Source: Giardia intestinalis (taxonomy: Eukaryota). From it: DNA of 64,000 nucleotides. Of this stretch, positions 1-26,940 are shown piece by piece; position 1 is the stretch's first letter; the number at the start of each line of letters is the position of its first letter. Location: assembly GCA_000002435.2 (NCBI GenBank), contig CM018793.1. One strand, 5' to 3'. The notes under the pieces are model-generated. The model did no database searches, was not told the DNA's origin, and saw nothing but the letters and a program-made list of their open reading frames with translations. The position numbers and the translations under genes were made by a program.

Positions 1-3000
1 GCCAGGGGGGCCTTCTCCCCAGCTCCAGGGGTATGCTCCTGTGCGCGGGGGCGCGCGGGTCACGGCCAGGGGGGCCAGGCGCTGCAGGCTGTGTGTTAGT
101 GGATCCGCGGAGAGGGCGGCCTGCGGTGTTAGGGCATAGCGGCATGCAGCATACAGGCCCGAGGGAGGCGTGCCATGTGGGGGGAGTGGTAGGGGGGCAT
201 CCTGGAGGATCGATGGCGAAGGTGCCGATCCTCCTCCGTGGCGGCGCAGGAGTCCTGGATGAGACGTGATGGCGTGGGTGCTTGGCCTTTGCTCGAGCGC
301 ATGGTGTGGGTGGACCGATTCCCCGCATCCTCCAGGCCCTGCGGGGGCGGTCTTCAGGCCCAAATTCTGGATTTTGGAAAAAATAAAATCCACCATGAGC
401 GTCGCCCCGGCGCAACCAGCAGGCCCTGGGCCGCGGAAACAAAGAGACAAATAGCCCGTGGACCAAGAAGAGTGCAGGCCTGTTTGGGGGGTAGAAGACG
501 ACGCGTCGGGCCAGAAACCCAGGGATCCAGGATTCCAGTCAAAGGCAGGCCTACAGACCGGCCCACTGCACCGCGCACATACGCGAGGCACCATAATGCT
601 GTTGCACTAAAAAGGGAAGCGCGAGCCCAGAGAACCGGCGAGGAAACCAGCTGGGGTGAGGGTGGGGAGCCAAATCTGGCCCATCGACACACGGGTGAGC
701 GTGGCCGCCCAAGGGACAGCGTGGACAGGTGTGCAGGCCCCATAAAGGATGCACGATGGGATCGGCCGGGGCCACCGATTCGGGGGACAAGGAGACCGTC
801 CGGACGGTCCCCGGAGTCCGGAGAAGGAGGTGCGGACCGTGCGCCATAGCTAGCCCATCCACACGTGTCGTGCTATTCCAGAATGGTGGCTCACCGGAGG
901 CGTCTGGCCAAGATGGCGGGGGCAGCGGGGCGGTGTCCCATACGCCCAGAGCCGACAGAAGGTCACGCCTGAGAGAGCAGACTGACGGCTTAGGAGGTGG
1001 TGTGGGGAGGCACGGGTGATGGAGGAGGCCCCCTAAGGGCGGGTCCAGGCTGATGACGCCAGCTCAGGACAGACCGGCAGAGCGCCGTGGAGCCATATTC
1101 TTCTGTGCGTGCCAGTCCCATCTGTGACAAGCAACCCATGTGGTGCCAGCGCTGGTGGGAGGCATGTGGCCCAGGTATGGAGCGAAACCTGGGGCCCGGC
1201 CGGACTGTCAACAGCCGTCACCGCGACTCAGCGGAGACCGAGCAGGAGAGGTAGAGAGGAGCAGGGGAGAATGGCCAGGCAAACACAGGCGCATGAGGGA
1301 TGGCCCATGGAGGGCAAGCACCTGGAGGCCAGGCCAGAGTGACCAGGTTCCCTGTACCGGGGCGCCCAGAGTGGGTACATGAGGGGGGCAGTGGGGAAGC
1401 GATGCACCCGAGGGCTCAGTAGCACATAGCACCCGGCCATCCTCTCCAGGGGCACCGGGGCGCTGCAGCAGAGGATGGCCCGAGCCAGGGCTGTGCCGCC
1501 CCGGACCGGAGGCGGCCACTGGCGGGCAGTTCCATGGGGGGATCAGCACGGCGCGGTGCGATGGTACGAATGACACACGGGGCTAGCCTCTTCCCCCAGC
1601 ACCAGCTCGCCAGACTCAGCACCCAAGGACCGCCGCTGCCCGGGAGGACAGACAGACGAACACCGGGCTGCGGCGTGGGCAGATGACGAGTCCCATCGAG
1701 GAAGTGCCCAAACGTAGGCAGGGCGGGTGTCTGGCCATCCAGGGGGGCGTCCGGCCTGGCCCGGCCTGGTCGAGTGTGTATGGCATCGCGGCTAGGCATC
1801 TATCGCACCGGTCTGGACGTGATGCACACCCGAATGATAGGGCAAGAGGCCTCGGGTGCGAGCGAGGAGTACCAGGGGAGACAGCTCGGCACGCAGGCCC
1901 AGGGGTCCGTTCGCGCTGTGGGGCAGCCGACAGCGGGCAGGGTGCCCAAGCATGACCACTAGCGCCCCGTGTCGATGCGTTTGAAGGGGTAGAAGCCATC
2001 AGGGGCATGCGGCTTGGGAGGACCGACGCGCTTGAAGAAGGACGGCAGGGCCTTGTGCACCGGCTCGGGTGCTCCTGCATCGTCGGGGCTGTCGTCATCC
2101 AGTGGAGGCGGGGAGGGGGCCCTTGAGCACATGAAGGGGTCTGGGCGTTCGTTTGCATCCGCTGTGCGGGGTGATCGGTGCCCCAGGTGATCGAGGAGGA
2201 GACCTCAGCAGGACCCCAGGGAGGAGGGACTGCCGCATCAGGATGCTGGCTGAGATCGGCCATGATCTCTACGGAGGGCGACGTGCCAGGGCTCCACATG
2301 GCAGGGGTGAGGGGAGTAGGAGGAGTAGCCCGAGCCTCGTTGGGAGCCGGTTCCGGCAGGGATACTGCAGGGGCGGGGCGGTGCACCGGCCTCTCCACTC
2401 GCAGCCCAGCGTACAGGAGGGCCGACAGCCTGTAGTGCCAGAGGATGACCTGCGCCGCCTCCTGCATGAAGCGCGCAAGGTCCACGCCGGCGAACGCGAG
2501 TCCGGCCGCAGACAGGTGGTGCAGGACGCCGTCAGCACCGACCACGACGGGGAGGATGTGGGCCGCCCGCCCCTGGAGCACGAGGGGGCGATACTTGGCG
2601 GCCTTCAGGGCATAGGACCGCTCCAGCCTCCACGGGACAGTGACCACCAAGTCCCCGAAGCCCCCACCGATGACAAGGTCAGGCTGGAGGTGATCCACTG
2701 GGATCGTGGGATTGCGCACAACAGACCCAGCGCGACCGCGGGAGCACGCGAGCAGGGCGTCCAGAATCTTGTCGTGCCGCGCCACGTGAATCCCGTTAAT
2801 GGCCTTGCACACCAGATGGTGCCTGGGAAGGAAGGGCTGCTTGCAGTGGCAGCACGTGCCCATCGGCCGGCCCCGCTGGTACCTCCCCGCCAAGCAGTCC
2901 CCTATGAACAGGACCTGCGTGTTGTCCAGGGGTGCGCAGCCCAGCAATGCGAGCGGCAGGAAGGATCGGAGCGCGGCCGTGTCCTGCAGGCGCTTCTTCC

Positions 3001-5289
3001 TCAGCTCGCGGAAGACGCCCGCCTTCATGTCCTGGCGCTGCCTGTGCATCTCGTCGTAGTAGTGATGGGGCAGCACCAGTCCGAGGCCGTACTTCGCGCG
3101 GGGCGTCAGAGCAAGGGTCTTCGCAAGGGGTTCGGGGATCTCCAGAAGGGTCGCGACCTCCTCCACTATCTGCGCATCGACGTCGGCATAGGGGGACGGG
3201 CCCGGGTAGTCGTCAACAAGGGGTCCATAGTTAACTGCAGGGACGACGCAGGCAGACAGGAGCCTGAGGCGGTCGTGGAGTGAGAGACCCGAAGCACGGA
3301 GGACGGCGAGATGCTCGTGGAGCCGGCGGGCCGATGTCTGCGCGAGGTTGAAGGAGGAGTGCTTGAGCACGCGGGTGCCCATGAAGGAGATCGCCCCGGC
3401 CTGGGTCGAGGAGCACTTCGAGAGCTCGACCGTGAGCCCTATGCGGGAGAGGGCAGACTGCGCGTCACTCTTCACGGTATCTATGGGAATCGCCTCCTCT
3501 GACGCAATGACGAGGTCGTCGGCGTATGCAACGACCTTGTACTGGCCGAGGTACGTCTCCACCGGCCAGACAAGGCTCTGGCAGAACATCGCCATGGACA
3601 GCGGGTCCCCCTGTGGCACGCCCGCTGGGACCGCGGGGAGGTCCGAGGAGTGCCGAGCCGCGAGGAACGACTCAATGTACGCGACGGTCGGCTGGACCAC
3701 CCCTGCCCGGCGGAGCGCAAAGAGGATGACGGAATGCGGGACGCTGTTGAAGGCATTCCGCACATCCACCGTGAGCAGGTGGTGTGTCCTCTTCAGCTCC
3801 TCGGCCGCGCGGATCGCCTTCATCTGGGCGAGGTGCTCAAAGGCCAGCTGCCACGCCGGGAGCTTGCGGAGCGCGGGAGTCCGACGCAGGAGCAAGCGGT
3901 GGAAGGCGACCAGAAGCGTCTCCTGCACTGCGATAGGGCGCCATCGGCCGCCAGACTTGGGCAGAAGCTTCAGCCTGAACTCGCACAGGGGCTGGAGCTG
4001 GGCCCAGTTCCTGCTGGAGAAGAGGGTCGTCAGGACAGAGGTGAAGAGCTCCGCAGCCCCGGCGGCCCCACAAAGGTGCAGGAGGTGAGGCTTCCCCAGC
4101 CCAGAGGGTCCGGCCGCGACAGGCCTCATCGCCTGCAGCTCCTTCAGCAGCGCCTTGGCCGTTATCTTGGGCGACGGGCCGAGCACGTGATGGACGGGGG
4201 GCAGAGAGACAGGCATGGGGCGCGGGTGGAGCTCATGGACAATCGCTTCCCGCTCCTTGCCCTGGGGCTCGGGGACCCTGGCGGCAGAGGACGTCTCGCT
4301 CAACAGCGCCTGCCATGCCCGGCCGAGCAGCCCCTTCCGGAGAAGCGACTGCGCCGGGGGGAGCCGTCCAGAGCCCTCCATGCGGCGGCACGTCGAGAGG
4401 AAGCGCGCTAGGGCCTCTACAGGAGGAAGGCGCCCCGCCATCTCTGTGAATACGTCAGTGAGGAGGCGAAGCAGCTCAGGGGACGGGCTGCCACTAGGCA
4501 CCCCGATGCGCTCGGGGACTGTGGCGTCGAGCGGGAGGTAGTGGCCGAGCCTGGCGATATGGGCCTTCAGCCCCCTCTCCGTTTTGTATCGGGCCCGGCA
4601 CATGCTGCATGCATACGGGAACACAGGGTCCGGCGTTGGCGAGGGAGAGGGCTCGGCGGCTGCAGGTGGAGGGGCAGACCCCGACAGCGGAGAAGGGCTG
4701 CGCGACGGAGAAGGTGAACCGGGAGGCGGATGGTGCATCCCGATGTGGACATCGATCGCCGCAGAGTCAGGCAGCACCTCTCCGCAGCGCTCGCAGACAG
4801 TCGTACGGCCCCCAGGAGCAGGCAGGTCTGCGCCCCGGGCCTCCTGCTCGTCCGTGATGGACGGGGAGTTGTCGTGGCCCAGGTCGTATGGGAGGCCGTC
4901 GTCGGGAATCGGGAGGGGCTCCTGGCCACAGGGCAGAAGGTCGTTCGACAGGCAGGGAGGAGAGGCGTCCCGGGCCACCGAGGCCCCGGAGCCCTGTAAG
5001 CCATGGACAGGAGAAGACTCATTGGGAGAGTTGTCCGTGGCGGAACGGCTGTTGCCAGGCCCAGGCTGGGGGGATGGGGGCCCGTGGGAGCCGCAGAGGG
5101 GCTCGCAAGAGGAAGGCCGGGCCATGGCGGTCGTCGAGGCATCGTTGCCGTCACCCAGCGTCATAGGATCGGGAGTGCCCCTAGGTAGGGGCCTGTGGGA
5201 GTCGGTTGGAGCGTGGTTGGGAGGCTCTGGGCCTGAGGAAGCCCCGATCTCCGTGGTTCCCGAAGGCGCGGAAAGGGCGGAACGCATGG
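1..5289 (-). mobile_element. R2-like (RLE-type) non-LTR retrotransposon copy E0; its 3' end and poly(A) lie left of the window
   Basis: Same ORF and 3' region as the other copies. The ATG complement is at 5285-5287, 2 nt from the poly(T) of E1. The 3' region at 590-780 carries several small deletions relative to E1-E3. Confidence 0.85.
1616..5287 (-). CDS. R2-type RT/endonuclease ORF of copy E0; a 1-bp deletion near the 3' end changes the last ~68 aa and extends the frame
   Basis: Identical to the E1 protein up to ...ITWGTDHPAQ. Sequence gcatccgctgtgc (about 2160) lacks one g relative to E1 gcatccggctgtgc (7640). All catalytic domains are intact. The track ORF 1616..5740 additionally reads through the poly(A) by chance. 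Confidence 0.6.
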   Translation of the reverse strand: MRSALSAPSGTTEIGASSGPEPPNHAPTDSHRPLPRGTPDPMTLGDGNDASTTAMARPSSCEPLCGSHGPPSPQPGPGNSRSATDNSPNESSPVHGLQGSGASVARDASPPCLSNDLLPCGQEPLPIPDDGLPYDLGHDNSPSITDEQEARGADLPAPGGRTTVCERCGEVLPDSAAIDVHIGMHHPPPGSPSPSRSPSPLSGSAPPPAAAEPSPSPTPDPVFPYACSMCRARYKTERGLKAHIARLGHYLPLDATVPERIGVPSGSPSPELLRLLTDVFTEMAGRLPPVEALARFLSTCRRMEGSGRLPPAQSLLRKGLLGRAWQALLSETSSAARVPEPQGKEREAIVHELHPRPMPVSLPPVHHVLGPSPKITAKALLKELQAMRPVAAGPSGLGKPHLLHLCGAAGAAELFTSVLTTLFSSRNWAQLQPLCEFRLKLLPKSGGRWRPIAVQETLLVAFHRLLLRRTPALRKLPAWQLAFEHLAQMKAIRAAEELKRTHHLLTVDVRNAFNSVPHSVILFALRRAGVVQPTVAYIESFLAARHSSDLPAVPAGVPQGDPLSMAMFCQSLVWPVETYLGQYKVVAYADDLVIASEEAIPIDTVKSDAQSALSRIGLTVELSKCSSTQAGAISFMGTRVLKHSSFNLAQTSARRLHEHLAVLRASGLSLHDRLRLLSACVVPAVNYGPLVDDYPGPSPYADVDAQIVEEVATLLEIPEPLAKTLALTPRAKYGLGLVLPHHYYDEMHRQRQDMKAGVFRELRKKRLQDTAALRSFLPLALLGCAPLDNTQVLFIGDCLAGRYQRGRPMGTCCHCKQPFLPRHHLVCKAINGIHVARHDKILDALLACSRGRAGSVVRNPTIPVDHLQPDLVIGGGFGDLVVTVPWRLERSYALKAAKYRPLVLQGRAAHILPVVVGADGVLHHLSAAGLAFAGVDLARFMQEAAQVILWHYRLSALLYAGLRVERPVHRPAPAVSLPEPAPNEARATPPTPLTPAMWSPGTSPSVEIMADLSQHPDAAVPPPWGPAEVSSSITWGTDHPAQRMQTNAQTPSCAQGPPPRLHWMTTAPTMQEHPSRCTRPCRPSSSASVLPSRMPLMASTPSNASTRGASGHAWAPCPLSAAPQRERTPGPACRAVSPGTPRSHPRPLALSFGCASRPDRCDRCLAAMPYTLDQAGPGRTPPWMARHPPCLRLGTSSMGLVICPRRSPVFVCLSSRAAAVLGC

Positions 5290-5302
5290 TTTTTTTTTTT
5301 TT
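5290..5302 (-). repeat. Poly(A) tail (13 nt) of copy E1, directly abutting the ATG of E0
   Basis: Plus strand reads catgg ttttttttttttt cagagg. Confidence 0.9.
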
Positions 5303-7431
5303 CAGAGGCGGTTTACTACGTAATATGCGCGCAAGGCGGTAAGGACATTGGAGGGGAGGCAGCCTCACGACGGAGGGGAAGGGCCCGCCCGGGGCGCCCA
5401 GCCCCCGTGCCCGCGTGGTCTCGCGGCGGGGGCGCGGCCAGGGGGGCCTTCTCCCCAGCTCCAGGGGTATGCTCCTGTGCGCGGGGGCGCGCGGGTCACG
5501 GCCAGGGGGGCCAGGCGCTGCAGGCTGTGTGTTAGTGGATCCGCGGAGAGGGCGGCCTGCGGTGTTAGGGCATAGCGGCATGCAGACATACAGGCCCGAG
5601 GGAGGCGTGCCATGTGAGGGGGAGTGGTAGGGGGGCATCCTGGAGGATCGATGGCGAAGGTGCCGATCCTCCTCCGTGGCGGCGCAGGAGTCCTGGATGA
5701 GACGTGATGGCGTGGGTGCTTGGCCTTTGCTCGAGCGCATGGTGTGGGTGGACCGATTCCCCGCATCCTCCAGGCCCTGCGGGGGCGGTCTTCAGGCCCA
5801 AATTCTGGATTTTGGAAAAAATAAAATCCACCATGAGCGTCGCCCCGGCGCAACCAGCAGGCCCTGGGCCGCGGAAACAAAGAGACAAATAGCCCGTGGA
5901 CCAAGAAGAGTGCAGGCCTGTTTGGGGGGTAGAAGACGACGCGTCGGGCCAGAAACCCAGGGATCCAGGATTCCAGTCAAAGGCAGGCCTACAGACCGGC
6001 CCACTGCACCGCGCACATACGCGAGGCACCATAATGCTGTTGCACTAAAAAGGGAAGCGCGAGCCCAGAGAACCGGCGAGGAAACAGCTTGGGGGTGGAG
6101 GGGTTTGGGGAGCCCAAATTCTGGCCCATCGACACACGGGGTGAGCTGTGGCCGGCCCAAGGGGACAGCGTGGACAGGTGTGTGCAGTGCCCCATATAAG
6201 GATGCACGATGGGGATCGGCCGGGGCCACCGATTCGGGGGACAAGGGAGACGCGTCCGGACTGTCCCCGGGAGTCCGTGAGAAGGGAGGGTGCGGACCGT
6301 GCGCCATAGCTAGCCCATCCACACGTGTCGTGCTATTCCAGAATGGTGGCTCACCGGAGGCGTCTGGCCAAGATGGCGGGGGCAGCGGGGCGGTGGTCCC
6401 ATACGGCCCAGGAGGCCGACAGAAGGTCACGCCTGAGAGAGCAGACTGACGGCTTAGGAGGTGGTGTGGGGAGGCACGGGTGATGGAGGAGGCCCCCTAA
6501 GGGCGGGTCCAGGCTGATGACGCCAGCTCAGGACAGACCGGCAGAGCGCCGTGGAGCCATATTCTTCTGTGCGTGCCAGTCCCATCTGTGACAAGCAACC
6601 CATGTGGTGCCAGCGCTGGTGGGAGGCATGTGGCCCAGGTATGGAGCGAAACCTGGGGGCCCGGCCGGGACTGTCAACAGCCGTCACCGCGACTCAGCGG
6701 AGACCGAGCAGGAGAGGTAGAGAGGAGCAGGGGAGAATGGGCCAGGCAAACACAGGCGCATGAGGGATGGCCCATTGGAGGGCAAGCACCTGGAGGCCAG
6801 GGCCAGAGTGACCAGGTTCCCTGTACCGGGGCGCCCAGAGTGGGTACATGAGGGGGGGCAGTGGGGAAGCGATGCACCCGAGGGCTCAGTAGCACATAGC
6901 ACCCGGCCATCCTCTCCAGGGGGCACCGGGGCGCTGCAGCAGAGGATGGCCCGAGCCAGGGCTGTGCCGCCCCGGACCGGAGGCGGCCACTGGCGGGCAG
7001 TTCCATGGGGGGATCAGCACGGCGCGGTGCGATGGTACGAATGACACACGGGGCTAGCCTCTTCCCCCAGCACCAGCTCGCCAGACTCAGCACCCAAGGA
7101 CCGCCGCTGCCCGGGAGGACAGACAGACGAACACCGGGCTGCGGCGTGGGCAGATGACGAGTCCCATCGAGGAAGTGCCCAAACGTAGGCAGGGCGGGTG
7201 TCTGGCCATCCAGGGGGGCGTCCGGCCTGGCCCGGCCTGGTCGAGTGTGTATGGCATCGCGGCTAGGCATCTATCGCACCGTGTCTGGACGTGATGCACA
7301 CCCGAATGATAGGGGCAAGAGGCCTCGGGTGCGAGCGAGGAGTACCAGGGGAGACAGCTCGGCACGCAGGCCCAGGGGTCCGTTCGCGCTGTGGGGCAGC
7401 CGACAGCGGGCAGGGTGCCCAAGCATGACCA
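5303..7431 (-). other. Unusually long (2129 nt) non-coding 3' region of E1. The equivalent regions in other copies are 10778-12906, 16255-18378, 21631-23734 and 1-1958 (partial)
   Basis: It lies between the ORF stop (7432-7434) and the poly(A). Only low-complexity Pro/Gly/Arg-rich ORFs occur on either strand. The region is near-identical across copies. Confidence 0.7.
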
Positions 7432-10400
7432 CTAGCGCCCCGTGTCGATGCGTTTGAAGGGGTAGAAGCCATCAGGGGCATGCGGCTTGGGAGGACCGAC
7501 GCGCTTGAAGAAGGACGGCAGGGCCTTGTGCACCGGCTCGGGTGCTCCTGCATCGTCGGGGCTGTCGTCATCCAGTGGAGGCGGGGAGGGGGCCCTTGAG
7601 CACATGAAGGGGTCTGGGCGTTCGTTTGCATCCGGCTGTGCGGGGTGATCGGTGCCCCAGGTGATCGAGGAGGAGACCTCAGCAGGACCCCAGGGAGGAG
7701 GGACTGCCGCATCAGGATGCTGGCTGAGATCGGCCATGATCTCTACGGAGGGCGACGTGCCAGGGCTCCACATGGCAGGGGTGAGGGGAGTAGGAGGAGT
7801 AGCCCGAGCCTCGTTGGGAGCCGGTTCCGGCAGGGATACTGCAGGGGCGGGGCGGTGCACCGGCCTCTCCACTCGCAGCCCAGCGTACAGGAGGGCCGAC
7901 AGCCTGTAGTGCCAGAGGATGACCTGCGCCGCCTCCTGCATGAAGCGCGCAAGGTCCACGCCGGCGAACGCGAGTCCGGCCGCAGACAGGTGGTGCAGGA
8001 CGCCGTCAGCACCGACCACGACGGGGAGGATGTGGGCCGCCCGCCCCTGGAGCACGAGGGGGCGATACTTGGCGGCCTTCAGGGCATAGGACCGCTCCAG
8101 CCTCCACGGGACAGTGACCACCAAGTCCCCGAAGCCCCCACCGATGACAAGGTCAGGCTGGAGGTGATCCACTGGGATCGTGGGATTGCGCACAACAGAC
8201 CCAGCGCGACCGCGGGAGCACGCGAGCAGGGCGTCCAGAATCTTGTCGTGCCGCGCCACGTGAATCCCGTTAATGGCCTTGCACACCAGATGGTGCCTGG
8301 GAAGGAAGGGCTGCTTGCAGTGGCAGCACGTGCCCATCGGCCGGCCCCGCTGGTACCTCCCCGCCAAGCAGTCCCCTATGAACAGGACCTGCGTGTTGTC
8401 CAGGGGTGCGCAGCCCAGCAATGCGAGCGGCAGGAAGGATCGGAGCGCGGCCGTGTCCTGCAGGCGCTTCTTCCTCAGCTCGCGGAAGACGCCCGCCTTC
8501 ATGTCCTGGCGCTGCCTGTGCATCTCGTCGTAGTAGTGATGGGGCAGCACCAGTCCGAGGCCGTACTTCGCGCGGGGCGTCAGAGCAAGGGTCTTCGCAA
8601 GGGGTTCGGGGATCTCCAGAAGGGTCGCGACCTCCTCCACTATCTGCGCATCGACGTCGGCATAGGGGGACGGGCCCGGGTAGTCGTCAACAAGGGGTCC
8701 ATAGTTAACTGCAGGGACGACGCAGGCAGACAGGAGCCTGAGGCGGTCGTGGAGTGAGAGACCCGAAGCACGGAGGACGGCGAGATGCTCGTGGAGCCGG
8801 CGGGCCGATGTCTGCGCGAGGTTGAAGGAGGAGTGCTTGAGCACGCGGGTGCCCATGAAGGAGATCGCCCCGGCCTGGGTCGAGGAGCACTTCGAGAGCT
8901 CGACCGTGAGCCCTATGCGGGAGAGGGCAGACTGCGCGTCACTCTTCACGGTATCTATGGGAATCGCCTCCTCTGACGCAATGACGAGGTCGTCGGCGTA
9001 TGCAACGACCTTGTACTGGCCGAGGTACGTCTCCACCGGCCAGACAAGGCTCTGGCAGAACATCGCCATGGACAGCGGGTCCCCCTGTGGCACGCCCGCT
9101 GGGACCGCGGGGAGGTCCGAGGAGTGCCGAGCCGCGAGGAACGACTCAATGTACGCGACGGTCGGCTGGACCACCCCTGCCCGGCGGAGCGCAAAGAGGA
9201 TGACGGAATGCGGGACGCTGTTGAAGGCATTCCGCACATCCACCGTGAGCAGGTGGTGTGTCCTCTTCAGCTCCTCGGCCGCGCGGATCGCCTTCATCTG
9301 GGCGAGGTGCTCAAAGGCCAGCTGCCACGCCGGGAGCTTGCGGAGCGCGGGAGTCCGACGCAGGAGCAAGCGGTGGAAGGCGACCAGAAGCGTCTCCTGC
9401 ACTGCGATAGGGCGCCATCGGCCGCCAGACTTGGGCAGAAGCTTCAGCCTGAACTCGCACAGGGGCTGGAGCTGGGCCCAGTTCCTGCTGGAGAAGAGGG
9501 TCGTCAGGACAGAGGTGAAGAGCTCCGCAGCCCCGGCGGCCCCACAAAGGTGCAGGAGGTGAGGCTTCCCCAGCCCAGAGGGTCCGGCCGCGACAGGCCT
9601 CATCGCCTGCAGCTCCTTCAGCAGCGCCTTGGCCGTTATCTTGGGCGACGGGCCGAGCACGTGATGGACGGGGGGCAGAGAGACAGGCATGGGGCGCGGG
9701 TGGAGCTCATGGACAATCGCTTCCCGCTCCTTGCCCTGGGGCTCGGGGACCCTGGCGGCAGAGGACGTCTCGCTCAACAGCGCCTGCCATGCCCGGCCGA
9801 GCAGCCCCTTCCGGAGAAGCGACTGCGCCGGGGGGAGCCGTCCAGAGCCCTCCATGCGGCGGCACGTCGAGAGGAAGCGCGCTAGGGCCTCTACAGGAGG
9901 AAGGCGCCCCGCCATCTCTGTGAATACGTCAGTGAGGAGGCGAAGCAGCTCAGGGGACGGGCTGCCACTAGGCACCCCGATGCGCTCGGGGACTGTGGCG
10001 TCGAGCGGGAGGTAGTGGCCGAGCCTGGCGATATGGGCCTTCAGCCCCCTCTCCGTTTTGTATCGGGCCCGGCACATGCTGCATGCATACGGGAACACAG
10101 GGTCCGGCGTTGGCGAGGGAGAGGGCTCGGCGGCTGCAGGTGGAGGGGCAGACCCCGACAGCGGAGAAGGGCTGCGCGACGGAGAAGGTGAACCGGGAGG
10201 CGGATGGTGCATCCCGATGTGGACATCGATCGCCGCAGAGTCAGGCAGCACCTCTCCGCAGCGCTCGCAGACAGTCGTACGGCCCCCAGGAGCAGGCAGG
10301 TCTGCGCCCCGGGCCTCCTGCTCGTCCGTGATGGACGGGGAGTTGTCGTGGCCCAGGTCGTATGGGAGGCCGTCGTCGGGAATCGGGAGGGGCTCCTGGC

Positions 10401-10761: not shown

Positions 10762-10763
10762 GG

Positions 10764-10777
10764 TTTTTTTTTTTTTT
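10764..10777 (-). repeat. Poly(A) tail (14 nt) of copy E2
   Basis: Homopolymer at a unit boundary. Confidence 0.9.
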
Positions 10778-12906
10778 CAGAGGCGGTTTACTACGTAATA
10801 TGCGCGCAAGGCGGTAAGGACATTGGAGGGGAGGCAGCCTCACGACGGAGGGGAAGGGCCCGCCCGGGGCGCCCAGCCCCCGTGCCCGCGTGGTCTCGCG
10901 GCGGGGGCGCGGCCAGGGGGGCCTTCTCCCCAGCTCCAGGGGTATGCTCCTGTGCGCGGGGGCGCGCGGGTCACGGCCAGGGGGGCCAGGCGCTGCAGGC
11001 TGTGTGTTAGTGGATCCGCGGAGAGGGCGGCCTGCGGTGTTAGGGCATAGCGGCATGCAGACATACAGGCCCGAGGGAGGCGTGCCATGTGAGGGGGAGT
11101 GGTAGGGGGGCATCCTGGAGGATCGATGGCGAAGGTGCCGATCCTCCTCCGTGGCGGCGCAGGAGTCCTGGATGAGACGTGATGGCGTGGGTGCTTGGCC
11201 TTTGCTCGAGCGCATGGTGTGGGTGGACCGATTCCCCGCATCCTCCAGGCCCTGCGGGGGCGGTCTTCAGGCCCAAATTCTGGATTTTGGAAAAAATAAA
11301 ATCCACCATGAGCGTCGCCCCGGCGCAACCAGCAGGCCCTGGGCCGCGGAAACAAAGAGACAAATAGCCCGTGGACCAAGAAGAGTGCAGGCCTGTTTGG
11401 GGGGTAGAAGACGACGCGTCGGGCCAGAAACCCAGGGATCCAGGATTCCAGTCAAAGGCAGGCCTACAGACCGGCCCACTGCACCGCGCACATACGCGAG
11501 GCACCATAATGCTGTTGCACTAAAAAGGGAAGCGCGAGCCCAGAGAACCGGCGAGGAAACAGCTTGGGGGTGGAGGGGTTTGGGGAGCCCAAATTCTGGC
11601 CCATCGACACACGGGGTGAGCTGTGGCCGGCCCAAGGGGACAGCGTGGACAGGTGTGTGCAGTGCCCCATATAAGGATGCACGATGGGGATCGGCCGGGG
11701 CCACCGATTCGGGGGACAAGGGAGACGCGTCCGGACTGTCCCCGGGAGTCCGTGAGAAGGGAGGGTGCGGACCGTGCGCCATAGCTAGCCCATCCACACG
11801 TGTCGTGCTATTCCAGAATGGTGGCTCACCGGAGGCGTCTGGCCAAGATGGCGGGGGCAGCGGGGCGGTGGTCCCATACGGCCCAGGAGGCCGACAGAAG
11901 GTCACGCCTGAGAGAGCAGACTGACGGCTTAGGAGGTGGTGTGGGGAGGCACGGGTGATGGAGGAGGCCCCCTAAGGGCGGGTCCAGGCTGATGACGCCA
12001 GCTCAGGACAGACCGGCAGAGCGCCGTGGAGCCATATTCTTCTGTGCGTGCCAGTCCCATCTGTGACAAGCAACCCATGTGGTGCCAGCGCTGGTGGGAG
12101 GCATGTGGCCCAGGTATGGAGCGAAACCTGGGGGCCCGGCCGGGACTGTCAACAGCCGTCACCGCGACTCAGCGGAGACCGAGCAGGAGAGGTAGAGAGG
12201 AGCAGGGGAGAATGGGCCAGGCAAACACAGGCGCATGAGGGATGGCCCATTGGAGGGCAAGCACCTGGAGGCCAGGGCCAGAGTGACCAGGTTCCCTGTA
12301 CCGGGGCGCCCAGAGTGGGTACATGAGGGGGGGCAGTGGGGAAGCGATGCACCCGAGGGCTCAGTAGCACATAGCACCCGGCCATCCTCTCCAGGGGGCA
12401 CCGGGGCGCTGCAGCAGAGGATGGCCCGAGCCAGGGCTGTGCCGCCCCGGACCGGAGGCGGCCACTGGCGGGCAGTTCCATGGGGGGATCAGCACGGCGC
12501 GGTGCGATGGTACGAATGACACACGGGGCTAGCCTCTTCCCCCAGCACCAGCTCGCCAGACTCAGCACCCAAGGACCGCCGCTGCCCGGGAGGACAGACA
12601 GACGAACACCGGGCTGCGGCGTGGGCAGATGACGAGTCCCATCGAGGAAGTGCCCAAACGTAGGCAGGGCGGGTGTCTGGCCATCCAGGGGGGCGTCCGG
12701 CCTGGCCCGGCCTGGTCGAGTGTGTATGGCATCGCGGCTAGGCATCTATCGCACCGTGTCTGGACGTGATGCACACCCGAATGATAGGGGCAAGAGGCCT
12801 CGGGTGCGAGCGAGGAGTACCAGGGGAGACAGCTCGGCACGCAGGCCCAGGGGTCCGTTCGCGCTGTGGGGCAGCCGACAGCGGGCAGGGTGCCCAAGCA
12901 TGACCA

Positions 12907-15900: not shown

Positions 15901-16235
15901 GCAGGGAGGAGAGGCGTCCCGGGCCACCGAGGCCCCGGAGCCCTGTAAGCCATGGACAGGAGAAGACTCATTGGGAGAGTTGTCCGTGGCGGAACGGCTG
16001 TTGCCAGGCCCAGGCTGGGGGATGGGGGCCCGTGGGAGCCGCAGAGGGGCTCGCAAGAGGAAGGCCGGGCCATGGCGGTCGTCGAGGCATCGTTGCCGTC
16101 ACCCAGCGTCATAGGATCGGGAGTGCCCCTAGGTAGGGGCCTGTGGGAGTCGGTTGGAGCGTGGTTGGGAGGCTCTGGGCCTGAGGAAGCCCCGATCTCC
16201 GTGGTTCCCGAAGGCGCGGAAAGGGCGGAACGCAT
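12907..16235 (-). CDS. R2-type RT/endonuclease ORF of copy E2 with one 1-bp frameshift in a G-run near the N-terminus
   Basis: Near 16017, ctgggggatggggg has 5 g where E1 and E0 have 6. The track ORF 12907..16056 (1049 aa) restarts from an in-frame Met just upstream of the shift and still contains every domain. This could be a homopolymer sequencing error. Confidence 0.6.
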
Positions 16236-16237
16236 GG

Positions 16238-16254
16238 TTTTTTTTTTTTTTTTT
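16238..16254 (-). repeat. Poly(A) tail (17 nt) of copy E3
   Basis: Homopolymer at a unit boundary. Confidence 0.9.
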
Positions 16255-18378
16255 AGGGGCGGTTTACTACGTAATATGCGCGCAAGGCGGTAAGGACATT
16301 GGAGGGGAGGCAGCCTCACGACGGAGGGGAAGGGCCCGCCCGGGGCGCCCAGCCCCCGTGCCCGCGTGGTCTCGCGGCGGGGGCGCGGCCAGGGGGGCCT
16401 TCTCCCCAGCTCCAGGGGTATGCTCCTGTGCGCGGGGGCGCGCGGGTCACGGCCAGGGGGGCCAGGCGCTGCAGGCTGTGTGTTAGTGGATCCGCGGAGA
16501 GGGCGGCCTGCGGTGTTAGGGCATAGCGGCATGCAGACATACAGGCCCGAGGGAGGCGTGCCATGTGAGGGGGAGTGGTAGGGGGGCATCCTGGAGGATC
16601 GATGGCGAAGGTGCCGATCCTCCTCCGTGGCGGCGCAGGAGTCCTGGATGAGACGTGATGGCGTGGGTGCTTGGCCTTTGCTCGAGCGCATGGTGTGGGT
16701 GGACCGATTCCCCGCATCCTCCAGGCCCTGCGGGGGCGGTCTTCAGGCCCAAATTCTGGATTTTGGAAAAAATAAAATCCACCATGAGCGTCGCCCCGGC
16801 GCAACCAGCAGGCCCTGGGCCGCGGAAACAAAGAGACAAATAGCCCGTGGACCAAGAAGAGTGCAGGCCTGTTTGGGGGGTAGAAGACGACGCGTCGGGC
16901 CAGAAACCCAGGGATCCAGGATTCCAGTCAAAGGCAGGCCTACAGACCGGCCCACTGCACCGCGCACATACGCGAGGCACCATAATGCTGTTGCACTAAA
17001 AAGGGAAGCGCGAGCCCAGAGAACCGGCGAGGAAACAGCTTGGGGGTGGAGGGGTTTGGGGAGCCCAAATTCTGGCCCATCGACACACGGGGTGAGCTGT
17101 GGCCGGCCCAAGGGGACAGCGTGGACAGGTGTGTGCAGTGCCCCATATAAGGATGCACGATGGGGATCGGCCGGGGCCACCGATTCGGGGGACAAGGGAG
17201 ACGCGTCCGGACTGTCCCCGGGAGTCCGTGAGAAGGGAGGGTGCGGACCGTGCACCATAGCTAGCCCATCCACACGTGTCGTGCTATTCCAGAATGGTGG
17301 CTCACCGGAGGCGTCTGGCCAAGATGGCGGGGGCAGCGGGGCGGTGGTCCCATACGGCCCAGGAGGCCGACAGAAGGTCACGCCTGAGAGAGCAGACTGA
17401 CGGCTTAGGAGGTGGTGTGGGGAGGCACGGGTGATGGAGGAGGCCCCCTAAGGGCGGGTCCAGGCTGATGACGCCAGCTCAGGACAGACCGGCAGAGCGC
17501 CGTGGAGCCATATTCTTCTGTGCGTGCCAGTCCCATCTGTGACAAGCAACCCATGTGGTGCCAGCGCTGGTGGGAGGCATGTGGCCCAGGTATGGAGCGA
17601 AACCTGGGGGCCCGGCCGGGACTGTCAACAGCCGTCACCGCGACTCAGCGGAGACCGAGCAGGAGAGGTAGAGAGGAGCAGGGGAGAATGGGCCAGGCAA
17701 ACACAGGCGCATGAGGGATGGCCCATTGGAGGGCAAGCACCTGGAGGCCAGGGCCAGAGTGACCAGGTTCCCTGTACCGGGGCGCCCAGAGTGGGTACAT
17801 GAGGGGGGCAGTGGGGAAGCGATGCACCCGAGGGCTCAGTAGCACATAGCACCCGGCCATCCTCTCCAGGGGGCACCGGGGCGCTGCAGCAGAGGATGGC
17901 CCGAGCCAGGGCTGTGCCGCCCGGACCGGAGGCGGCCACTGGCGGGCAGTTCCATGGGGGGATCAGCACGGCGCGGTGCGATGGTACGAATGACACACGG
18001 GGCTAGCCTCTTCCCCCAGCACCAGCTCGCCAGACTCAGCACCCAAGGACCGCCGCTGCCCGGGAGGACAGACAGACGAACACCGGGCTGCGGCGTGGGC
18101 AGATGACGAGTCCATCGAGGAAGTGCCCAAACGTAGGCAGGGCGGGTGTCTGGCCATCCAGGGGGGCGTCCGGCCTGGCCCGGCCTGGTCGAGTGTGTAT
18201 GGCATCGCGGCTAGGCATCTATCGCACCGTGTCTGGACGTGATGCACACCCGAATGATAGGGGCAAGAGGCCTCGGGTGCGAGCGAGGAGTACCAGGGGA
18301 GACAGCTCGGCACGCAGGCCCAGGGGTCCGTTCGCGCTGTGGGGCAGCCGACAGCGGGCAGGGTGCCCAGCATGACCA

Positions 18379-21300
18379 CTAGCGCCCCGTGTCGATGCGT
18401 TTGAAGGGGTAGAAGCCATCAGGGGCATGCGGCTTGGGAGGACCGACGCGCTTGAAGAAGGACGGCAGGGCCTTGTGCACCGGCTCGGGTGCTCCTGCAT
18501 CGTCGGGGCTGTCGTCATCCAGTGGAGGCGGGGAGGGGGCCCTTGAGCACATGAAGGGGTCTGGGCGTTCGTTTGCATCCGGCTGTGCGGGGTGATCGGT
18601 GCCCCAGGTGATCGAGGAGGAGACCTCAGCAGGACCCCAGGGAGGAGGGACTGCCGCATCAGGATCTGGCTGAGATCGGCCATGATCTCTACGGAGGGCG
18701 ACGTGCCAGGGCTCCACATGGCAGGGGTGAGGGGAGTAGGAGGAGTAGCCCGAGCCTCGTTGGGAGCCGGTTCCGGCAGGGATACTGCAGGGGCGGGGCG
18801 GTGCACCGGCCTCTCCACTCGCAGCCCAGCGTACAGGAGGGCCGACAGCCTGTAGTGCCAGAGGATGACCTGCGCCGCCTCCTGCATGAAGCGCGCAAGG
18901 TCCACGCCGGCGAACGCGAGTCCGGCCGCAGACAGGTGGTGCAGGACGCCGTCAGCACCGACCACGACGGGGAGGATGTGGGCCGCCCGCCCCTGGAGCA
19001 CGAGGGGGCGATACTTGGCGGCCTTCAGGGCATAGGACCGCTCCAGCCTCCACGGGACAGTGACCACCAAGTCCCCGAAGCCCCCACCGATGACAAGGTC
19101 AGGCTGGAGGTGATCCACTGGGATCGTGGGATGCGCACAACAGACCCAGCGCGACCGCGGGAGCACGCGAGCAGGGCGTCCAGAATCTTGTCGTGCCGCG
19201 CCACGTGAATCCCGTTAATGGCCTTGCACACCAGATGGTGCCTGGGAAGGAAGGGCTGCTTGCAGTGGCAGCACGTGCCCATCGGCCGGCCCCGCTGGTA
19301 CCTCCCCGCCAAGCAGTCCCCTATGAACAGGACCTGCGTGTTGTCCAGGGGTGCGCGCCCAGCAATGCGAGCGGCAGGAAGGACGGAGCGCGGCCGGTGT
19401 CCTGCAGGCGCTCTTCCTCAGCTCGCGGAAGACGCCCGCCTTCATGTCCTGGCGCTGCCTGTGCATCTCGTCGAGTAGTGAGGGGCAGCACCAGTCCGAG
19501 GCCGACTTCGCGCGGGGCGTCAGAGCAAGGGTCTTCGCAAGGGGTTCGGGGATCTCCAGAAGGGTCGCGACCTCCTCCACTATCTGCGCATCGACGTCGG
19601 CATAGGGGGACGGGCCCGGGTAGTCGTCACAAGGGGTCCATAGTTAACTGCAGGGACGACGCAGGCAGACAGGAGCCTGAGGCGTCGTGGAGGAGAGAAC
19701 CCGAACACGGAGGACGGCGAGATGCTCGTGGAGCGGCGGGCCGATGTCTGCGCGAGGTTGAAGGAGGAGTGCTTGAGCACGCGGGTGCCCATGAAGGAGA
19801 TCGCCCCGGCCTGGGTCGAGGAGCACTTCGAGAGCTCGACCGTGAGCCCTATGCGGAGAGGGCAGACTGCGCGTCACTCTTCACGGTACTATGGGAATCG
19901 CCTCCTCTGACGCAATGACGAGGTCGTCGGCGTATGCAACGACCTTGTACTGGCCGAGGTACGTCTCCACCGGCCAGACCAAGGCTCTGGCAGAACATCG
20001 CCATGGACAGCGGGTCCCCCTGCACGCCCGCTGGACGCGGGGAGGTCCGAGAGTGCGAGCCGCGAGAACGACTCAAGTACGCGACGGTCGGCTGGACACC
20101 CCTGCCCGGCGGAGCGCAAAGAGGAGACGGAAGCGGGACGCTGTGAAGGCATTCCGCACATCACCGGAGCAGTGGTGGTCCTCTTCAGCTCCTCGGCCGC
20201 GCGGATCGCCTTCATCTGGCGAGGTGCTCAAGCCAGCTGCCACGCCGGGAGCTTGCGGAGCGCGGGAGTCCGACGCAGGAGCAAGCGGTGGAAGGCGACC
20301 AGAAGCGTCTCCTGCACTGCGATAGGGCGCCATCGCCGCCAGACTTGGGCAGAAGCTTCAGCCTGAACTCGCACGGGGCTGGAGCGGGCCCAGTTCCTGC
20401 TGGAGGAAGAGGGTCGTCAGACAGAGGGAAGAGCTCCGCAGCCCCGGCGCCCCACAAAGGTGCAGGAGGGAGGCTTCCCCAGCCCAGAGGGTCCGCCGCG
20501 ACAGGCCCATCGGCCTGCAGCTCCTCAGCAGCGCCTGGCCGTTATCTTGGGCGACGGGCCGAGCACGTGATGGACGGGGGCGAGAGACAGGCATGGGCGC
20601 GGGTGGAGCTCATGGACAATCGCTTCCCGCTCCTTGCCCTGGGGCTCGGGACCCTGGCGGCAGAGGACGTCTCGCTCAACAGCGCCTGCCATGCCCGGCC
20701 GAGCAGCCCCTTCCGGAGAAGCGACTGCGCCGGGGGGAGCCGTCCAGAGCCCTCCATGCGGCGGCACGTCGAGAGGAAGCGCGCTAGGGCCTCTACAGGA
20801 GGAGGCGCCCCGCCATCTCTGTGAATACGTCAGTGAGGAGGCGAAGCAGCTCAGGGGACGGCTGCCACAGGCACCCGATGCGCTCGGGGACTGTGGCGTC
20901 GAGCGGGAGGTAGTGGCCGAGCCTGGCGATATGGGCCTTCAGCCCCCTCTCCGTTTGTATCGGGCCCGGCACATGCTGCATGCATACGGGAACACAGGGT
21001 CCGGCGTTGGCGAGGGAGAGGGCTCGGCGGCTGCAGGTGGAGGGCAGACCCCGACAGCGGAGAAGGGCTGCGCGACGGAGAAGGTGAACCGGGAGGCGGA
21101 TGTGCATCCCGATGTGGACATCGATCGCCGCAGAGTCAGGCAGCACCTCTCCGCAGCGCTCGCAGACAGTCGTACGGCCCCAGGAGCAGGCAGGTCTGCG
21201 CCCCCCTCCGCTCGTGTCGGGCCCAGGTCGTATGGGAGGCCGTCGTCGGCGGGAGGGCTCCTGGCCACAGGCCGACAGGCAGGGAGGAGAGGCGTCCCGG

Positions 21301-21613
21301 GCCACCGAGGCCCCGGAGCCCTGTAAGCCATGGACAGGAGAAGACTCATTGGGAGAGTTGTCCGTGGCGGAACGGCTGTTGCCAGGCCCAGGCTGGGGGA
21401 TGGGGGCCCGTGGGAGCCGCAGAGGGGCTCGCAAGAGGAAGGCCGGGCCATGGCGGTCGTCGAGGCATCGTTGCCGTCACCCAGCGTCATAGGATCGGGA
21501 GTGCCCCTAGGTAGGGGCCTGTGGGAGTCGGTTGGAGCGTGGTTGGGAGGCTCTGGGCCTGAGGAAGCCCCGATCTCCGTGGTTCCCGAAGGCGCGGAAA
21601 GGGCGGAACGCAT
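18379..21613 (-). pseudogene. Degenerate R2-type ORF of copy E3 (many frameshifts)
   Basis: Only fragments remain in the ORF track (18379..18717, 18219..19166, 19025..19312, 19215..19580, 20793..21434, 20939..21613). They carry recognisable pieces of the E1 protein, interrupted by numerous 1-bp deletions. Confidence 0.8.
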
Positions 21614-21615
21614 GG

Positions 21616-21630
21616 TTTTTTTTTTTTTTT
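21616..21630 (-). repeat. Poly(A) tail (15 nt) of copy E4
   Basis: Homopolymer at a unit boundary. Confidence 0.9.
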
Positions 21631-23734
21631 AGGGCGGTTTACTACGTAATATGCGCGCAAGGCGGTAAGGACATTGGAGGGGAGGCAGCCTCACGACGGA
21701 GGGGAAGGGCCCGCCGGGGCGCCCAGCCCCCGTGCCCGCGTGGTCTCGCGGCGGGGCGCGGCCAGGGGGGCTTCTCCCCAGCTCCAGGGTATGCTCCTGT
21801 GCGCGGGGCGCGCGGGTCACGGCCAGGGGGGCCAGGCGCTGCAGGCTGTGTGTTAGTGGATCCGCGGAGAGGGCGGCCTGCGGTGTTAGGGCATAGCGGC
21901 ATGCAGACATACAGGCCCGAGGGAGGCGTGCCATGTGAGGGGAGTGGTAGGGGGCATCCTGGAGGATCGATGGCGAAGGTGCCGATCCTCCTCCGTGGCG
22001 GCGCAGGAGTCCTGGATGAGACGTGATGGCGTGGGTGCTTGGCCTTTGCTCGAGCGCATGGTGTGGGTGGACCGATCCCCGCATCCTCCAGGCCCTGCGG
22101 GGCGGTCTTCAGGCCCAAATTCTGGATTTTGGAAAAAATAAATCCACCATGAGCGTCGCCCGGCGCAACCAGCAGGCCCTGGGCCGCGGAAACAAGAGAC
22201 AAATAGCCCGTGGACCAAGAAGAGTGCAGGCCTGTTTGGGGGTAGAAGACGACGCGTCGGGCCAGAAACCCAGGGATCCAGGATTCCAGTCAAAGGCAGG
22301 CCTACAGACCGGCCCACTGCACCGCGCACATACGCGAGGCACCATAATGCTGTTGCACTAAAAAGGGAAGCGCGAGCCCAGAGAACCGGCGAGGAAACAG
22401 CTTGGGGGTGGAGGGGTTTGGGGAGCCCAAATTCTGGCCCATCGACACACGGGGTGAGCTGTGGCCGGCCCAAGGGGACAGCGTGGACAGGTGTGTGCAG
22501 TGCCCCATATAAGGATGCACGATGGGGATCGGCCGGGGCCACCGATTCGGGGGACAAGGGAGACGCGTCCGGACTGTCCCCGGGAGTCCGTGAGAAGGGA
22601 GGGTGCGGACCGTGCGCCATAGCTAGCCCATCCACACGTGTCGTGCTATTCCAGAATGGTGGCTCACCGGAGGCGTCTGGCCAAGATGGCGGGGGCAGCG
22701 GGGCGGTGGTCCCATACGGCCCAGGAGCCGACAGAAGGTCACGCCTGAGAGAGCAGACTGACGGCTTAGGAGGTGGTGTGGGGAGGCACGGGTGATGGAG
22801 GAGGCCCCCTAAGGGCGGGTCCAGGCTGATGACGCCAGCTCAGGACAGACCGGCAGAGCGCCGTGGAGCCATATTCTTCTGTGCGTGCCAGTCCCATCTG
22901 TGACAAGCAACCCATGTGGTGCCAGCGCTGGAGGCATGTGGCCCAGGTATGGAGCGAAACCTGGGGGCCCGGCCGGACTGTCAACAGCCGTCACCGCGAC
23001 TCAGCGGAGACCGAGCAGGAGAGGTAGAGAGGAGCAGGGGAGAATGGGCCAGGCAAACACAGGCGCATGAGGATGGCCCATTGGAGGGCAAGCACCTGGA
23101 GGCCAGGGCCAGAGTGACCAGGTTCCCTGTACCGGGGCGCCCAGAGTGGGTACATGAGGGGGGCAGTGGGGAAGCGATGCACCCGAGGGCTCAGTAGCAC
23201 ATAGCACCCGGCCATCCTCTCCAGGGGGCACCGGGGCGCTGCAGCAGAGGATGGCCCGAGCCAGGGCTGTGCCGCCCCGGACCGGAGGCGGCCACTGGCG
23301 GGCAGTTCCATGGGGGATCAGCACGGCGCGGTGCGATGGTACGAATGACACACGGGGCTAGCCTCTTCCCCCAGCACCAGCTCGCCAGACTCAGCACCCA
23401 AGGACCGCCGCTGCCCGGAGGACAGACAGACGAACACCGGGCTGCGGCGTGGGCAGATGACGAGTCCCATCGAGGAAGTGCCCAAACGTAGGCAGGGCGG
23501 GTGTCTGGCCATCCAGGGGGGCGTCCGGCCTGGCCCGGCCTGGTCGAGTGTGTATGGCATCGCGGCTAGGCATCTATCGCACCGTGTCTGGACGTGATGC
23601 ACACCCGAATGATAGGGGCAAGAGGCCTCGGGTGCGAGCGAGGAGTACCAGGGGAGACAGCTCGGCACGCAGGCCCAGGGGTCCGTTCGCGCTGTGGGGC
23701 AGCCGACAGCGGGCAGGGTGCCCAAGCATGACCA

Positions 23735-24838
23735 CTAGCGCCCCGTGTCGATGCGTTTGAAGGGGTAGAAGCCATCAGGGGCATGCGGCTTGGGAGGACC
23801 GACGCGCTTGAAGAAGGACGGCAGGGCCTTGTGCACCGGCTCGGGTGCTCCTGCATCGTCGGGGCTGTCGTCATCCAGTGGAGGCGGGAGGGGGCCCTTG
23901 AGCACATGAAGGGGTCTGGGCGTTCGTTTGCATCCGGCTGTGCGGGGTGATCGGTGCCCCAGGTGATCGAGGAGGAGACCTCAGCAGGACCCCAGGGAGG
24001 AGGACTGCCGCATCAGGATGCTGGCTGAGATCGGCCATGATCTCTACGGAGGGCGACGTGCCAGGGCTCCACATGGCAGGGGTGAGGGGAGTAGGAGGAG
24101 TAGCCCGAGCCTCGTTGGGAGCCGGTTCCGGCAGGGATACTGCAGGGGCGGGGCGGTGCACCGGCCTCTCCACTCGCAGCCCAGCGTACAGGAGGGCCGA
24201 CAGCCTGTAGTGCCAGAGGATGACCTGCGCCGCCTCCTGCATGAAGCGCGCAAGGTCCACGCCGGCGAACGCGAGTCCGGCCGCAGACAGGTGGTGCAGG
24301 ACGCCGTCAGCACCGACCACGACGGGGAGGATGTGGGCCGCCCGCCCCTGGAGCACGAGGGGGCGATACTTGGCGGCCTTCAGGGCATAGGACCGCTCCA
24401 GCCTCCACGGGACAGTGACCACCAAGTCCCCGAAGCCCCCACCGATGACAAGGTCAGGCTGGAGGTGATCCACTGGGATCGTGGGATTGCGCACAACAGA
24501 CCCAGCGCGACCGCGGGAGCACGCGAGCAGGGCGTCCAGAATCTTGTCGTGCCGCGCCACGTGAATCCCGTTAATGGCCTTGCACACCAGATGGTGCCTG
24601 GGAAGGAAGGGCTGCTTGCAGTGGCAGCACGTGCCCATCGGCCGGCCCCGCTGGTACCTCCCCGCCAAGCAGTCCCCTATGAACAGGACCTGCGTGTCCA
24701 GGGGTGCGCCCCAGCAATGCGAGCGGCAGGAAGGATCGGAGCGCGGCCGTGTCCTGCAGGCGCTTCTTCCTCAGCTCGCGGAAGACGCCCGCCTTCATGT
24801 CCTGGCGCTGCCTGTGCATCTCGTCGTAGTAGTGATGG
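23735..24838 (-). pseudogene. 5'-truncated, frameshifted R2-type ORF remnant of copy E4 (C-terminal ~365 aa; CCHC and RLE region present)
   Basis: Track ORF 23871..24668 contains CCHCKQPFLPRHH...PDLVIGGGFGDLVVTV. Small indels are present. Homology stops at 24838. Confidence 0.8.
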
Positions 24839-25004
24839 CTGCGCCGGCCGCCCCGCCCCACAGGCCCGGGCTGGAGTCAAGCTCAAAAGGGTCTTCTTGC
24901 CCCGCTGGCCGGCCCTCGCCGTTCCCGAGGCTGGAGGCTCGCGGAGGCGCGGCTCGGGACAGTGGGATCCTCGTTGGTCCATTCATGCACGTCGGAAATT
25001 GCCC

Positions 25005-25041
<37 letters not shown>

Positions 25042-26703: not shown

Positions 26704-26774
26704 CCGCCTCGGGCCCCAGCCCGGCGGGACCGCCCCGGGGCGCTCTCTGCGCGCCGGCGCGCGGCACGCGGCGG

Positions 26775-26890
26775 GCGCCGGCGGCCCGCCGGGGCGCGCT
26801 GCGTTCGAGGGTCGGTGCTTCTCGGGCGGCGGGTCGACCCGCGTCTCGCGCTCCGCGCGCTCTTCGTCGCCGCCCGGGCCGAGGCATCCG
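26775..26890 (-). pseudogene. 5.8S rRNA-like relic, shrunken to ~110 nt and flanked by vestigial ITS2 (~26704-26774) and ITS1 (~26891-26940)
   Basis: Reverse complement GGATGCCTCGGCCCGGGCGGCGACGAAGAGCGCGCGGAGCGCGAG...CCTCGAACGCAGCGCGCCCCGG aligns to 5.8S GGATCACTCGGCTCGTGCGTCGATGAAGAACGCAGCTAGCTGCGAG...CTTCGAACGCACTTGCGGCCCCGG with an AT to GC bias and a deletion. Confidence 0.6.
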
Positions 26891-26940
26891 CCGGCGGGGC
26901 GTTCGGGGCCGACCGGCCGCGGGGCGACGCGCGGGGCCGC

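Follow-up and report, generated by a model that had tools for sequence, protein, structure and literature searches.

A head-to-tail retrotransposon array identified as GilM (Genie 1), and its ribosomal DNA flank, in Giardia intestinalis WB

Layout of the array and anatomy of its unit

We analyzed a 64,000-nucleotide (nt) stretch of the Giardia intestinalis contig CM018793.1 (assembly GCA_000002435.2), hereafter the window, the left part of which is occupied by a tandem array of a retrotransposon without long terminal repeats (a non-LTR element). On the evidence given below, and with high confidence for both identity and anatomy, we take this element to be GilM (Genie 1) of the WB isolate. Real sequence is confined to positions 1-27161 of the window (27,161 bases), with a G+C content of 66% and a G-rich plus strand, and the assembled scaffold probably begins at position 1.

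Direct-repeat analysis of the region 1-24838 revealed five in-register copies of the element with start-to-start spacings of 5474, 5475, 5471 and 5355 nt. Tandem Repeats Finder, whose longest period is 500, was silent on the array, which was instead established by this analysis together with alignments. The tandem structure is genuine and lies far above chance expectation. The copies (A to E) and the open reading frames (ORFs) of the first two are as follows, with coordinates given from the 5' to the 3' end of each feature:

5289 to 1, minus strand: copy A, with its 5' end (CC-ATG) at 5289 and about 185 nt of its 3' end plus the poly(A) lost at the edge of the window and scaffold
5287 to 1616, minus strand: ORF of copy A, 1223 amino acids (aa), with a C-terminal extension through a frameshift
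10763 to 5290, minus strand: copy B, a complete unit of 5474 nt, with its poly(A) at 5290-5302 (13 nt)
10761 to 7432, minus strand: ORF of copy B, the canonical, intact form of 1109 aa
16237 to 10764, minus strand: copy C, 5474 nt, with its poly(A) at 10764-10777 (14 nt)
21615 to 16238, minus strand: copy D, 5378 nt, with its poly(A) at 16238-16254 (17 nt) and a broken ORF
24838 to 21616, minus strand: copy E, the copy on the side of the ribosomal DNA (rDNA), which through 5' truncation begins only at unit position 2222, within the ORF, with its poly(A) at 21616-21630 (15 nt)

An original prediction, made from the letters of this stretch, had described at least 4.5 head-to-tail copies of a 5.47-kb unit ending at 24838. 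This is borne out, with about 4.5 copies of a unit of 5,474 nt on the minus strand across 1-24838, and the junction alignment shows the end coordinate to be exact. The prediction had further described the copies as nearly identical, each with its ORF starting 2 nt past the preceding poly(A) and with no target-site sequence between them, and here too the data agree: copy C differs from copy B only in the length of the poly(A) and in one 1-nt deletion near unit position 217, which splits its ORF, while copy-to-copy identity is at least 98.9% in all pairs when gaps are ignored. CC-ATG is found at all four inter-unit junctions, and none of the four contains anything extra or any 28S sequence.

Each unit comprises a 2-nt leader, a single ORF, a 3' untranslated region (UTR) of about 2.1 kb, the motif AGTAAAC and a poly(A). 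The ORF encodes two C2H2 zinc fingers, a reverse transcriptase (RT), a CCHC motif and a restriction-like endonuclease (RLE). Its best PDB matches are R2 proteins, with collinear alignments for the fingers, for the RT and for the CCHC/RLE region. In copy A these parts were recognized at the following positions:

4550-4615, minus strand: the second of the two N-terminal C2H2 zinc fingers (Pfam zf-C2H2_4, under the gathering threshold), collinear with the N-terminal fingers of R2
3371-3961, minus strand: reverse transcriptase domain (Pfam RVT_1, E = 5e-21)
2621-2860, minus strand: CCHC and RLE motifs (RHD...PDL...D-V...K), read off the translation, with a weak alignment collinear with the CCHC/RLE region of R2

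The four junctions in the window, all on the minus strand, read AGTAAAC-N8-(A)13-17-CC-ATG, and a boundary between copies runs as ...AGTAAACCGCCTCTG(A)13CCATGCG.... The signal in copy B may stand for all of them:

5311-5317, minus strand: AGTAAAC poly(A) signal, which stops 8 nt short of the poly(A) and recurs at every junction

AGTAAA is unchanged in the seven junctions that we compared, and AGTAAAC fits the consensus of the Giardia polyadenylation signal, AGT[A/G]AA[T/C] (PMC1872034). Given its position 8 nt before each poly(A) and its fit to this consensus, the boundary of the unit is therefore a genuine mRNA 3' end. On this sequence evidence, the units are retrotransposed transcripts, each 5,474-nt unit being a full copy of an mRNA. 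Every segment of the unit falls within an ORF-to-poly(A) transcript structure, and the '771-bp repeat' that Burke et al. are said to have described could not be located as a separable part of it.

Copies A, D and E differ almost entirely through private deletions. Copy A has 22 deletions and no insertions, with a cluster at 540-1040 in its 3' UTR; copy D, relative to copy B, has 54 deletions and three insertions in its 5' half (19365-21615); and copy E has 25 deletions and one insertion scattered over 21616-24838. In all three copies the private deletions are mostly of 1 nt and mostly within homopolymers, and homopolymer frameshifts of PacBio origin are acknowledged in the paper describing the WB genome (PMC7000408). 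This pattern suggests that most of the inter-copy differences are probably errors of an unpolished long-read consensus. Because the spectrum is one of deletion-biased homopolymer changes, we regard consensus errors as the probable cause of the shorter length of copy D, of the disrupted ORFs and of the 1223-aa protein, and the annotated variant protein of that length, XP_037902120.1, is probably an artefact. The apparent divergence of some of the copies bears the signature of assembly errors. The only variants that look like true subfamily markers in these alignments are two substitutions, just before the poly(A), that are shared by copies D and E.

Beyond copy E, the remainder of the window is made up of the following features:

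24839-26716, minus strand: 5' three-quarters of the large-subunit (LSU, 28S) rRNA gene, identified with Rfam, broken off near position 2555 of the model (length 3401), where copy E directly adjoins it
26717-26940, minus strand: interval of 224 nt with the internal transcribed spacers (ITS) and the 5.8S gene (ITS1-5.8S-ITS2), assigned by its position between the 18S and LSU genes
26941-27161, minus strand: 3' end of the 18S rRNA gene, identified with Rfam and cut by the assembly gap
27162-64000, no strand: run of N, an assembly gap by its base composition, taking up more than half of the window

This truncated 28S-5.8S-18S unit at the end of the array was absent from the original prediction. 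Rfam yielded no call for the 5.8S gene in 26717-26940 at E <= 0.01, perhaps owing to the divergence or the shortness of the Giardia 5.8S relative to the model. The target site of R2, TTAAGG^TAGCCAAATGCC, is uninterrupted at 25010-25027. The junction between GilM and the 28S gene lies 183 nt downstream of that site, with a possible CC microhomology, and belongs to the 5' end of a truncated copy rather than being a 3' junction of target-primed reverse transcription. A strict regular expression for G-quadruplex (G4) motifs found one motif per strand in the window; this does not reproduce the 27 potential quadruplex sequences published with pqsfinder, and the result is not used as evidence here.

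Identity of the element and its relationship to other retrotransposons

In the literature the element bears the names GilM (Arkhipova & Morrison 2001, AF433875) and Genie 1 (Burke, Malik, Rich & Eickbush 2002). The published 290-aa segment of the GilM RT (supplement of PMC10088271) occurs unchanged within the ORFs of copies A and B, whereas the same stretch is 66% identical to its counterpart in GilT (AF433876). AAL47180.1, a deposition of 2001, shares 99% identity with the ORF. The top database match, again at 99% identity, comes from Giardia duodenalis, has 1109 aa and is annotated as 'putative reverse transcriptase/endonuclease'; the ORF of copy B is identical to this protein, P0001 (KAE8301202-4), and that of copy A to P0025 (KAE8304591.1/XP_037902120.1), both being WB reference annotations. 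A GC-rich green alga with a Zepp-like element, which the G+C content of 66% had initially brought to mind, was rejected in view of the compact GC-rich rDNA in the flank and the Giardia origin of the protein matches. Both Genie-1 primers (PMC1950533) match copies A, B and C with no mismatches, where zero matches are expected by chance. Finally, the 5474 nt of copies B and C equal the 5,474 bp given for one GilM copy in the WB genome paper (PMC7000408).

The same paper places 'approximately four copies' of GilM at the unresolved end of chromosome 5, derives at least nine copies from read depth, with a repetitive optical map suggesting more, and reports that partial 18S genes bracket the biggest gap (PMC7000408). 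The window corresponds to what the 2020 reference puts first on its chromosome 5 scaffold, namely a GilM array followed by rDNA up to a partial 18S gene and a gap of N. According to the literature, GilM and GilT form same-orientation head-to-tail arrays with some 5'-truncated copies and unusually long 3' UTRs; for Genie 1, the wording attributed to Burke et al. is 'site-specific tandem insertions', and reviews state that reverse transcription of GilM and GilT points toward the chromosome end. A head-to-tail, same-orientation array is also what we find, the four poly(A)-to-5' junctions all lying on the minus strand and the 3' UTR measuring about 2.1 kb. Known GilM arrays are subtelomeric and lie next to rDNA or telomere repeats; in the window rDNA adjoins the array, but TAGGG repeats are absent. 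Thus, the array is already known, both as a published arrangement and as this very array in the WB genome paper, and the unusual fate of an R2-type element that the original prediction implied does not hold, the tandem array being the defining published arrangement of GilM and GilT. Relative to the GilM reference, the element in the window has nothing of substance that is different, the frameshifts in some of the copies probably being assembly errors. What is possibly new is limited to details: the generality of the junction, including its occurrence between subfamilies, and a 52-nt block in the 3' UTR with a compensatory change.

The designation 'R2-like' stands for the architecture of the element, a single ORF with zinc fingers, RT, CCHC and RLE as in R2, but not for its descent: published trees place GilM and GilT outside the R2 clade, in the Genie or a CRE-like lineage. 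With the R2 elements of arthropods and vertebrates GilM shares, in addition to this architecture, an association with rDNA. However, R2 is found as one copy per 28S gene at the R2 site, whereas GilM forms a self-adjacent array and the R2 site is left intact. GilM further differs from R2 in having a templated poly(A) tail that is preceded by the poly(A) signal of the host. GilT and certain families with units of 5.8-6.2 kb (from assemblage E isolate P15 and metagenome contigs) share with GilM the same domains, the tandem arrangement, the junction and the 52-nt block, but differ from it in having about 55-66% protein identity, other unit lengths and a 3' UTR most of which is unrelated.

In Drosophila, too, the chromosome ends carry head-to-tail arrays of non-LTR elements (HeT-A, TART and TAHRE) that all face the same way and have long 3' UTRs; in HeT-A, the 3' end of the upstream copy promotes the downstream copy, a role that for GilM is only inferred. 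The Drosophila elements belong to the Jockey clade and the internal copies of their arrays are variably 5'-truncated, whereas the internal copies of GilM are full length and encode an RLE: copies A-D share the CC-ATG 5' end, with the rDNA-side copy alone being truncated, and the internal copies of two related arrays described below (L002 and L003) likewise keep complete 5' ends. Zepp of Chlorella and MoTeR of Magnaporthe are further non-LTR elements that cluster at or near telomeres. The clusters of Zepp are nested and 5'-truncated, while MoTeRs insert into telomere repeats. Unlike the latter, the GilM units have no telomere repeats (TAGGG) inside or beside them, and none occur anywhere in the window. 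Giardia itself also has telomerase repeats (PMC7000408).

Junctions and a conserved 52-nt block in related loci

The junctions were compared with those in six related loci (L001-L006) from P15, metagenome and SRA contigs. Two P15 contigs are themselves tandem arrays, with units of 6,206 and 5,817 nt. In five of the six loci (L002-L006) the junctions take the form AGTAAA-N8-10-(A)8-15-CC-ATG, one of the two junctions of L003 having CCA-ATG; the remaining locus, L001, departs from this form with a spacer of 9 nt, an A-tract of only A6-7, and either CT or CCC where the others have CC. The junction architecture thus recurs in families that are only 55-65% identical in protein. The two junctions of L005 (82-89 and 5162-5171) combine unlike upstream 3' ends with the same downstream 5' end, and those of L001 (4806-4811 and 7237-7243) join unlike or degenerate elements. 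These sequences indicate that mixed arrays exist in other Giardia isolates or samples.

Three of these loci, L004 (ERZ27317019), L005 (ERZ28636831) and L006 (SRR21529641), are contigs of about one unit in length (5.2-6.5 kb) with a G+C content of 66-73%, and encode GilM/GilT-like proteins at 55-65% identity. Their sequences suggest that they represent lineages of Giardia, or families of the element, that have yet to be described and in which the tandem arrays were collapsed to a single unit.

Within the 3' UTR, a 52-nt block is conserved between the window and its relatives:

5380-5431, 10855-10906 and 16331-16382, minus strand: 52-nt 3'-UTR block in the window, about 77 nt upstream of the poly(A) in the case of 5380-5431, and present in every unit
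L002 6057-6109; L003 36-89, 5853-5906 and 11662-11715; L004 77-129; L005 5043-5095: the same block in the relatives, located by sequence comparison

Across the window and the relatives, 66-78 nt separate the block from the poly(A) downstream of it, and the block is identical or near-identical in families whose ORFs are about 66% identical at the nucleotide level. In L005, its stem CCGCG/CGCGG is replaced by CCGCA/TGCGG, i.e. one compensatory change. The block may be an RNA element recognized by the element's own RT.

Formation of the array

Since junctions of one and the same architecture are found both between unlike elements and in diverged families, the junction must therefore have been made repeatedly, which favors integration at the boundary of a resident copy. 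Under this proposal, new copies would arise by target-primed reverse transcription at the boundary between the A-tract and the 5' end of a resident copy, i.e. by self-targeting. The upstream poly(A) would supply an A/T-rich initiator, and the tandem position would thereby allow a copy with a leader of just 2 nt to be transcribed. In Giardia, promoters take the form of short A/T-rich initiators located where transcription begins (PMC1872034), and it is this A/T-richness, along with the 2-nt leader of GilM, that points to the upstream poly(A) as a possible initiator of the downstream copy. Unequal exchange and gene conversion would afterwards have kept the copies nearly identical and varied their number; such homogenization is suggested by the identity of copies B and C, the variants shared by D and E, and the reported variation in copy number. 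The outermost copy would have lost its 5' part and become linked to a broken 28S gene in the telomere-proximal rDNA. We hold this integration and promoter mechanism with moderate confidence. A stronger form of it, in which the junction is a dual site (self-target and promoter), the element is an obligate dweller of tandem arrays and the 52-nt hairpin is a signal for the RT, appears improbable to us as a whole, and parts of it are possibly already contained in the primary papers of 2001 and 2002.

Several points weigh against the account given here. With respect to the location, a 2024 paper disputes the chromosomal placement and assigns the piece to the 3' end of chromosome 4. With respect to the mechanism, the window contains neither an empty target site nor an array-proximal end, and the sequence alone leaves integration an inference; similarly, the promoter role of the junction would follow only from the general nature of Giardia promoters. 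The poly(A) lengths and most of the inter-copy differences may be long-read errors and are no proof of independent insertions; the differences in poly(A) length in particular are not usable for this purpose because of the homopolymer deletion errors in the contig. The identity of B and C and the shared 3'-terminal variants of D and E fit local duplication as well.

The last point leads to the view that the array expanded from a dimer chiefly through unequal exchange between sister chromatids or through gene conversion, with retrotransposition needed only once or twice. In its favor, B matches C throughout its 5.47 kb, the shared variants link only the neighbors D and E, the copy number of such arrays is reported to vary between homologues, and the optical map and read depth suggest a variable array size. 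However, exchange copies junctions and cannot make heterotypic ones, whereas the poly(A)-CC-ATG junction occurs between subfamilies and in diverged families, and so was created many times. Of the mechanisms that the original prediction had offered, unequal crossover alone is hence contradicted by the heterotypic junctions of L005 and L001, though it survives as a likely contributor; as the main process we consider it unlikely. Under the other mechanism of the original prediction, template jumping, concatemers would form in one event, with an RT that reaches the 5' end of a GilM RNA continuing on the poly(A) of a second one. The heterotypic junctions could then be jumps between subfamily RNAs, and the lack of target sequence between the copies would fit such an event. 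End-to-end template jumping by the R2 RT in vitro was reportedly observed by Bibillo & Eickbush, and jumps of the R2 RT commonly add a few non-templated nucleotides. Against this, the spacer is CC at all four junctions in the window and in L002-L006, apart from the CCA at one junction of L003, with CT and CCC appearing only in L001; we accordingly regard one-step concatenation as very improbable.

A further possibility, which we judge quite improbable, is that GilM is added to free chromosome ends in the style of HeT-A and TART, with a 3'-OH priming on the poly(A) and no need for an endonuclease. The single orientation of the copies and the direction of reverse transcription toward the chromosome end stated in reviews are consistent with this, as are the 5' truncation of the rDNA-side copy, which terminal erosion would yield, and the course of the element's G-rich strand toward the rDNA side. 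Yet erosion should leave varied truncations, as in Drosophila, whereas the internal copies A-D and those of L002 and L003 have full 5' ends; moreover, the endonuclease domain is apparently intact, and it is rDNA, not GilM, that lies on the side to which the 5' ends of the element point. That the array might be an assembly artefact generated from dispersed single copies can almost be dismissed. The contig is indeed poorly polished and its chromosomal placement has been revised, but the optical map is repetitive and the read depth about nine times the genome average (PMC7000408), an independent Nanopore assembly of strain Be-2 also carries a GilM block, and in the P15 contigs, which are independent as well, the copies stand in tandem and share this junction. 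Tandem arrays had, moreover, been reported from clone-based data already in 2001-2002.

GilM and GilT arrays have been textbook telomere-associated retrotransposons since 2001, and the array as such therefore carries little weight as a discovery. For annotation, its value lies in recognizing the window as the GilM-rDNA end piece of the WB assembly, which is poorly polished and whose chromosome assignment is questioned. For the elements themselves, the junction and the 52-nt block offer useful handles for work on their integration.

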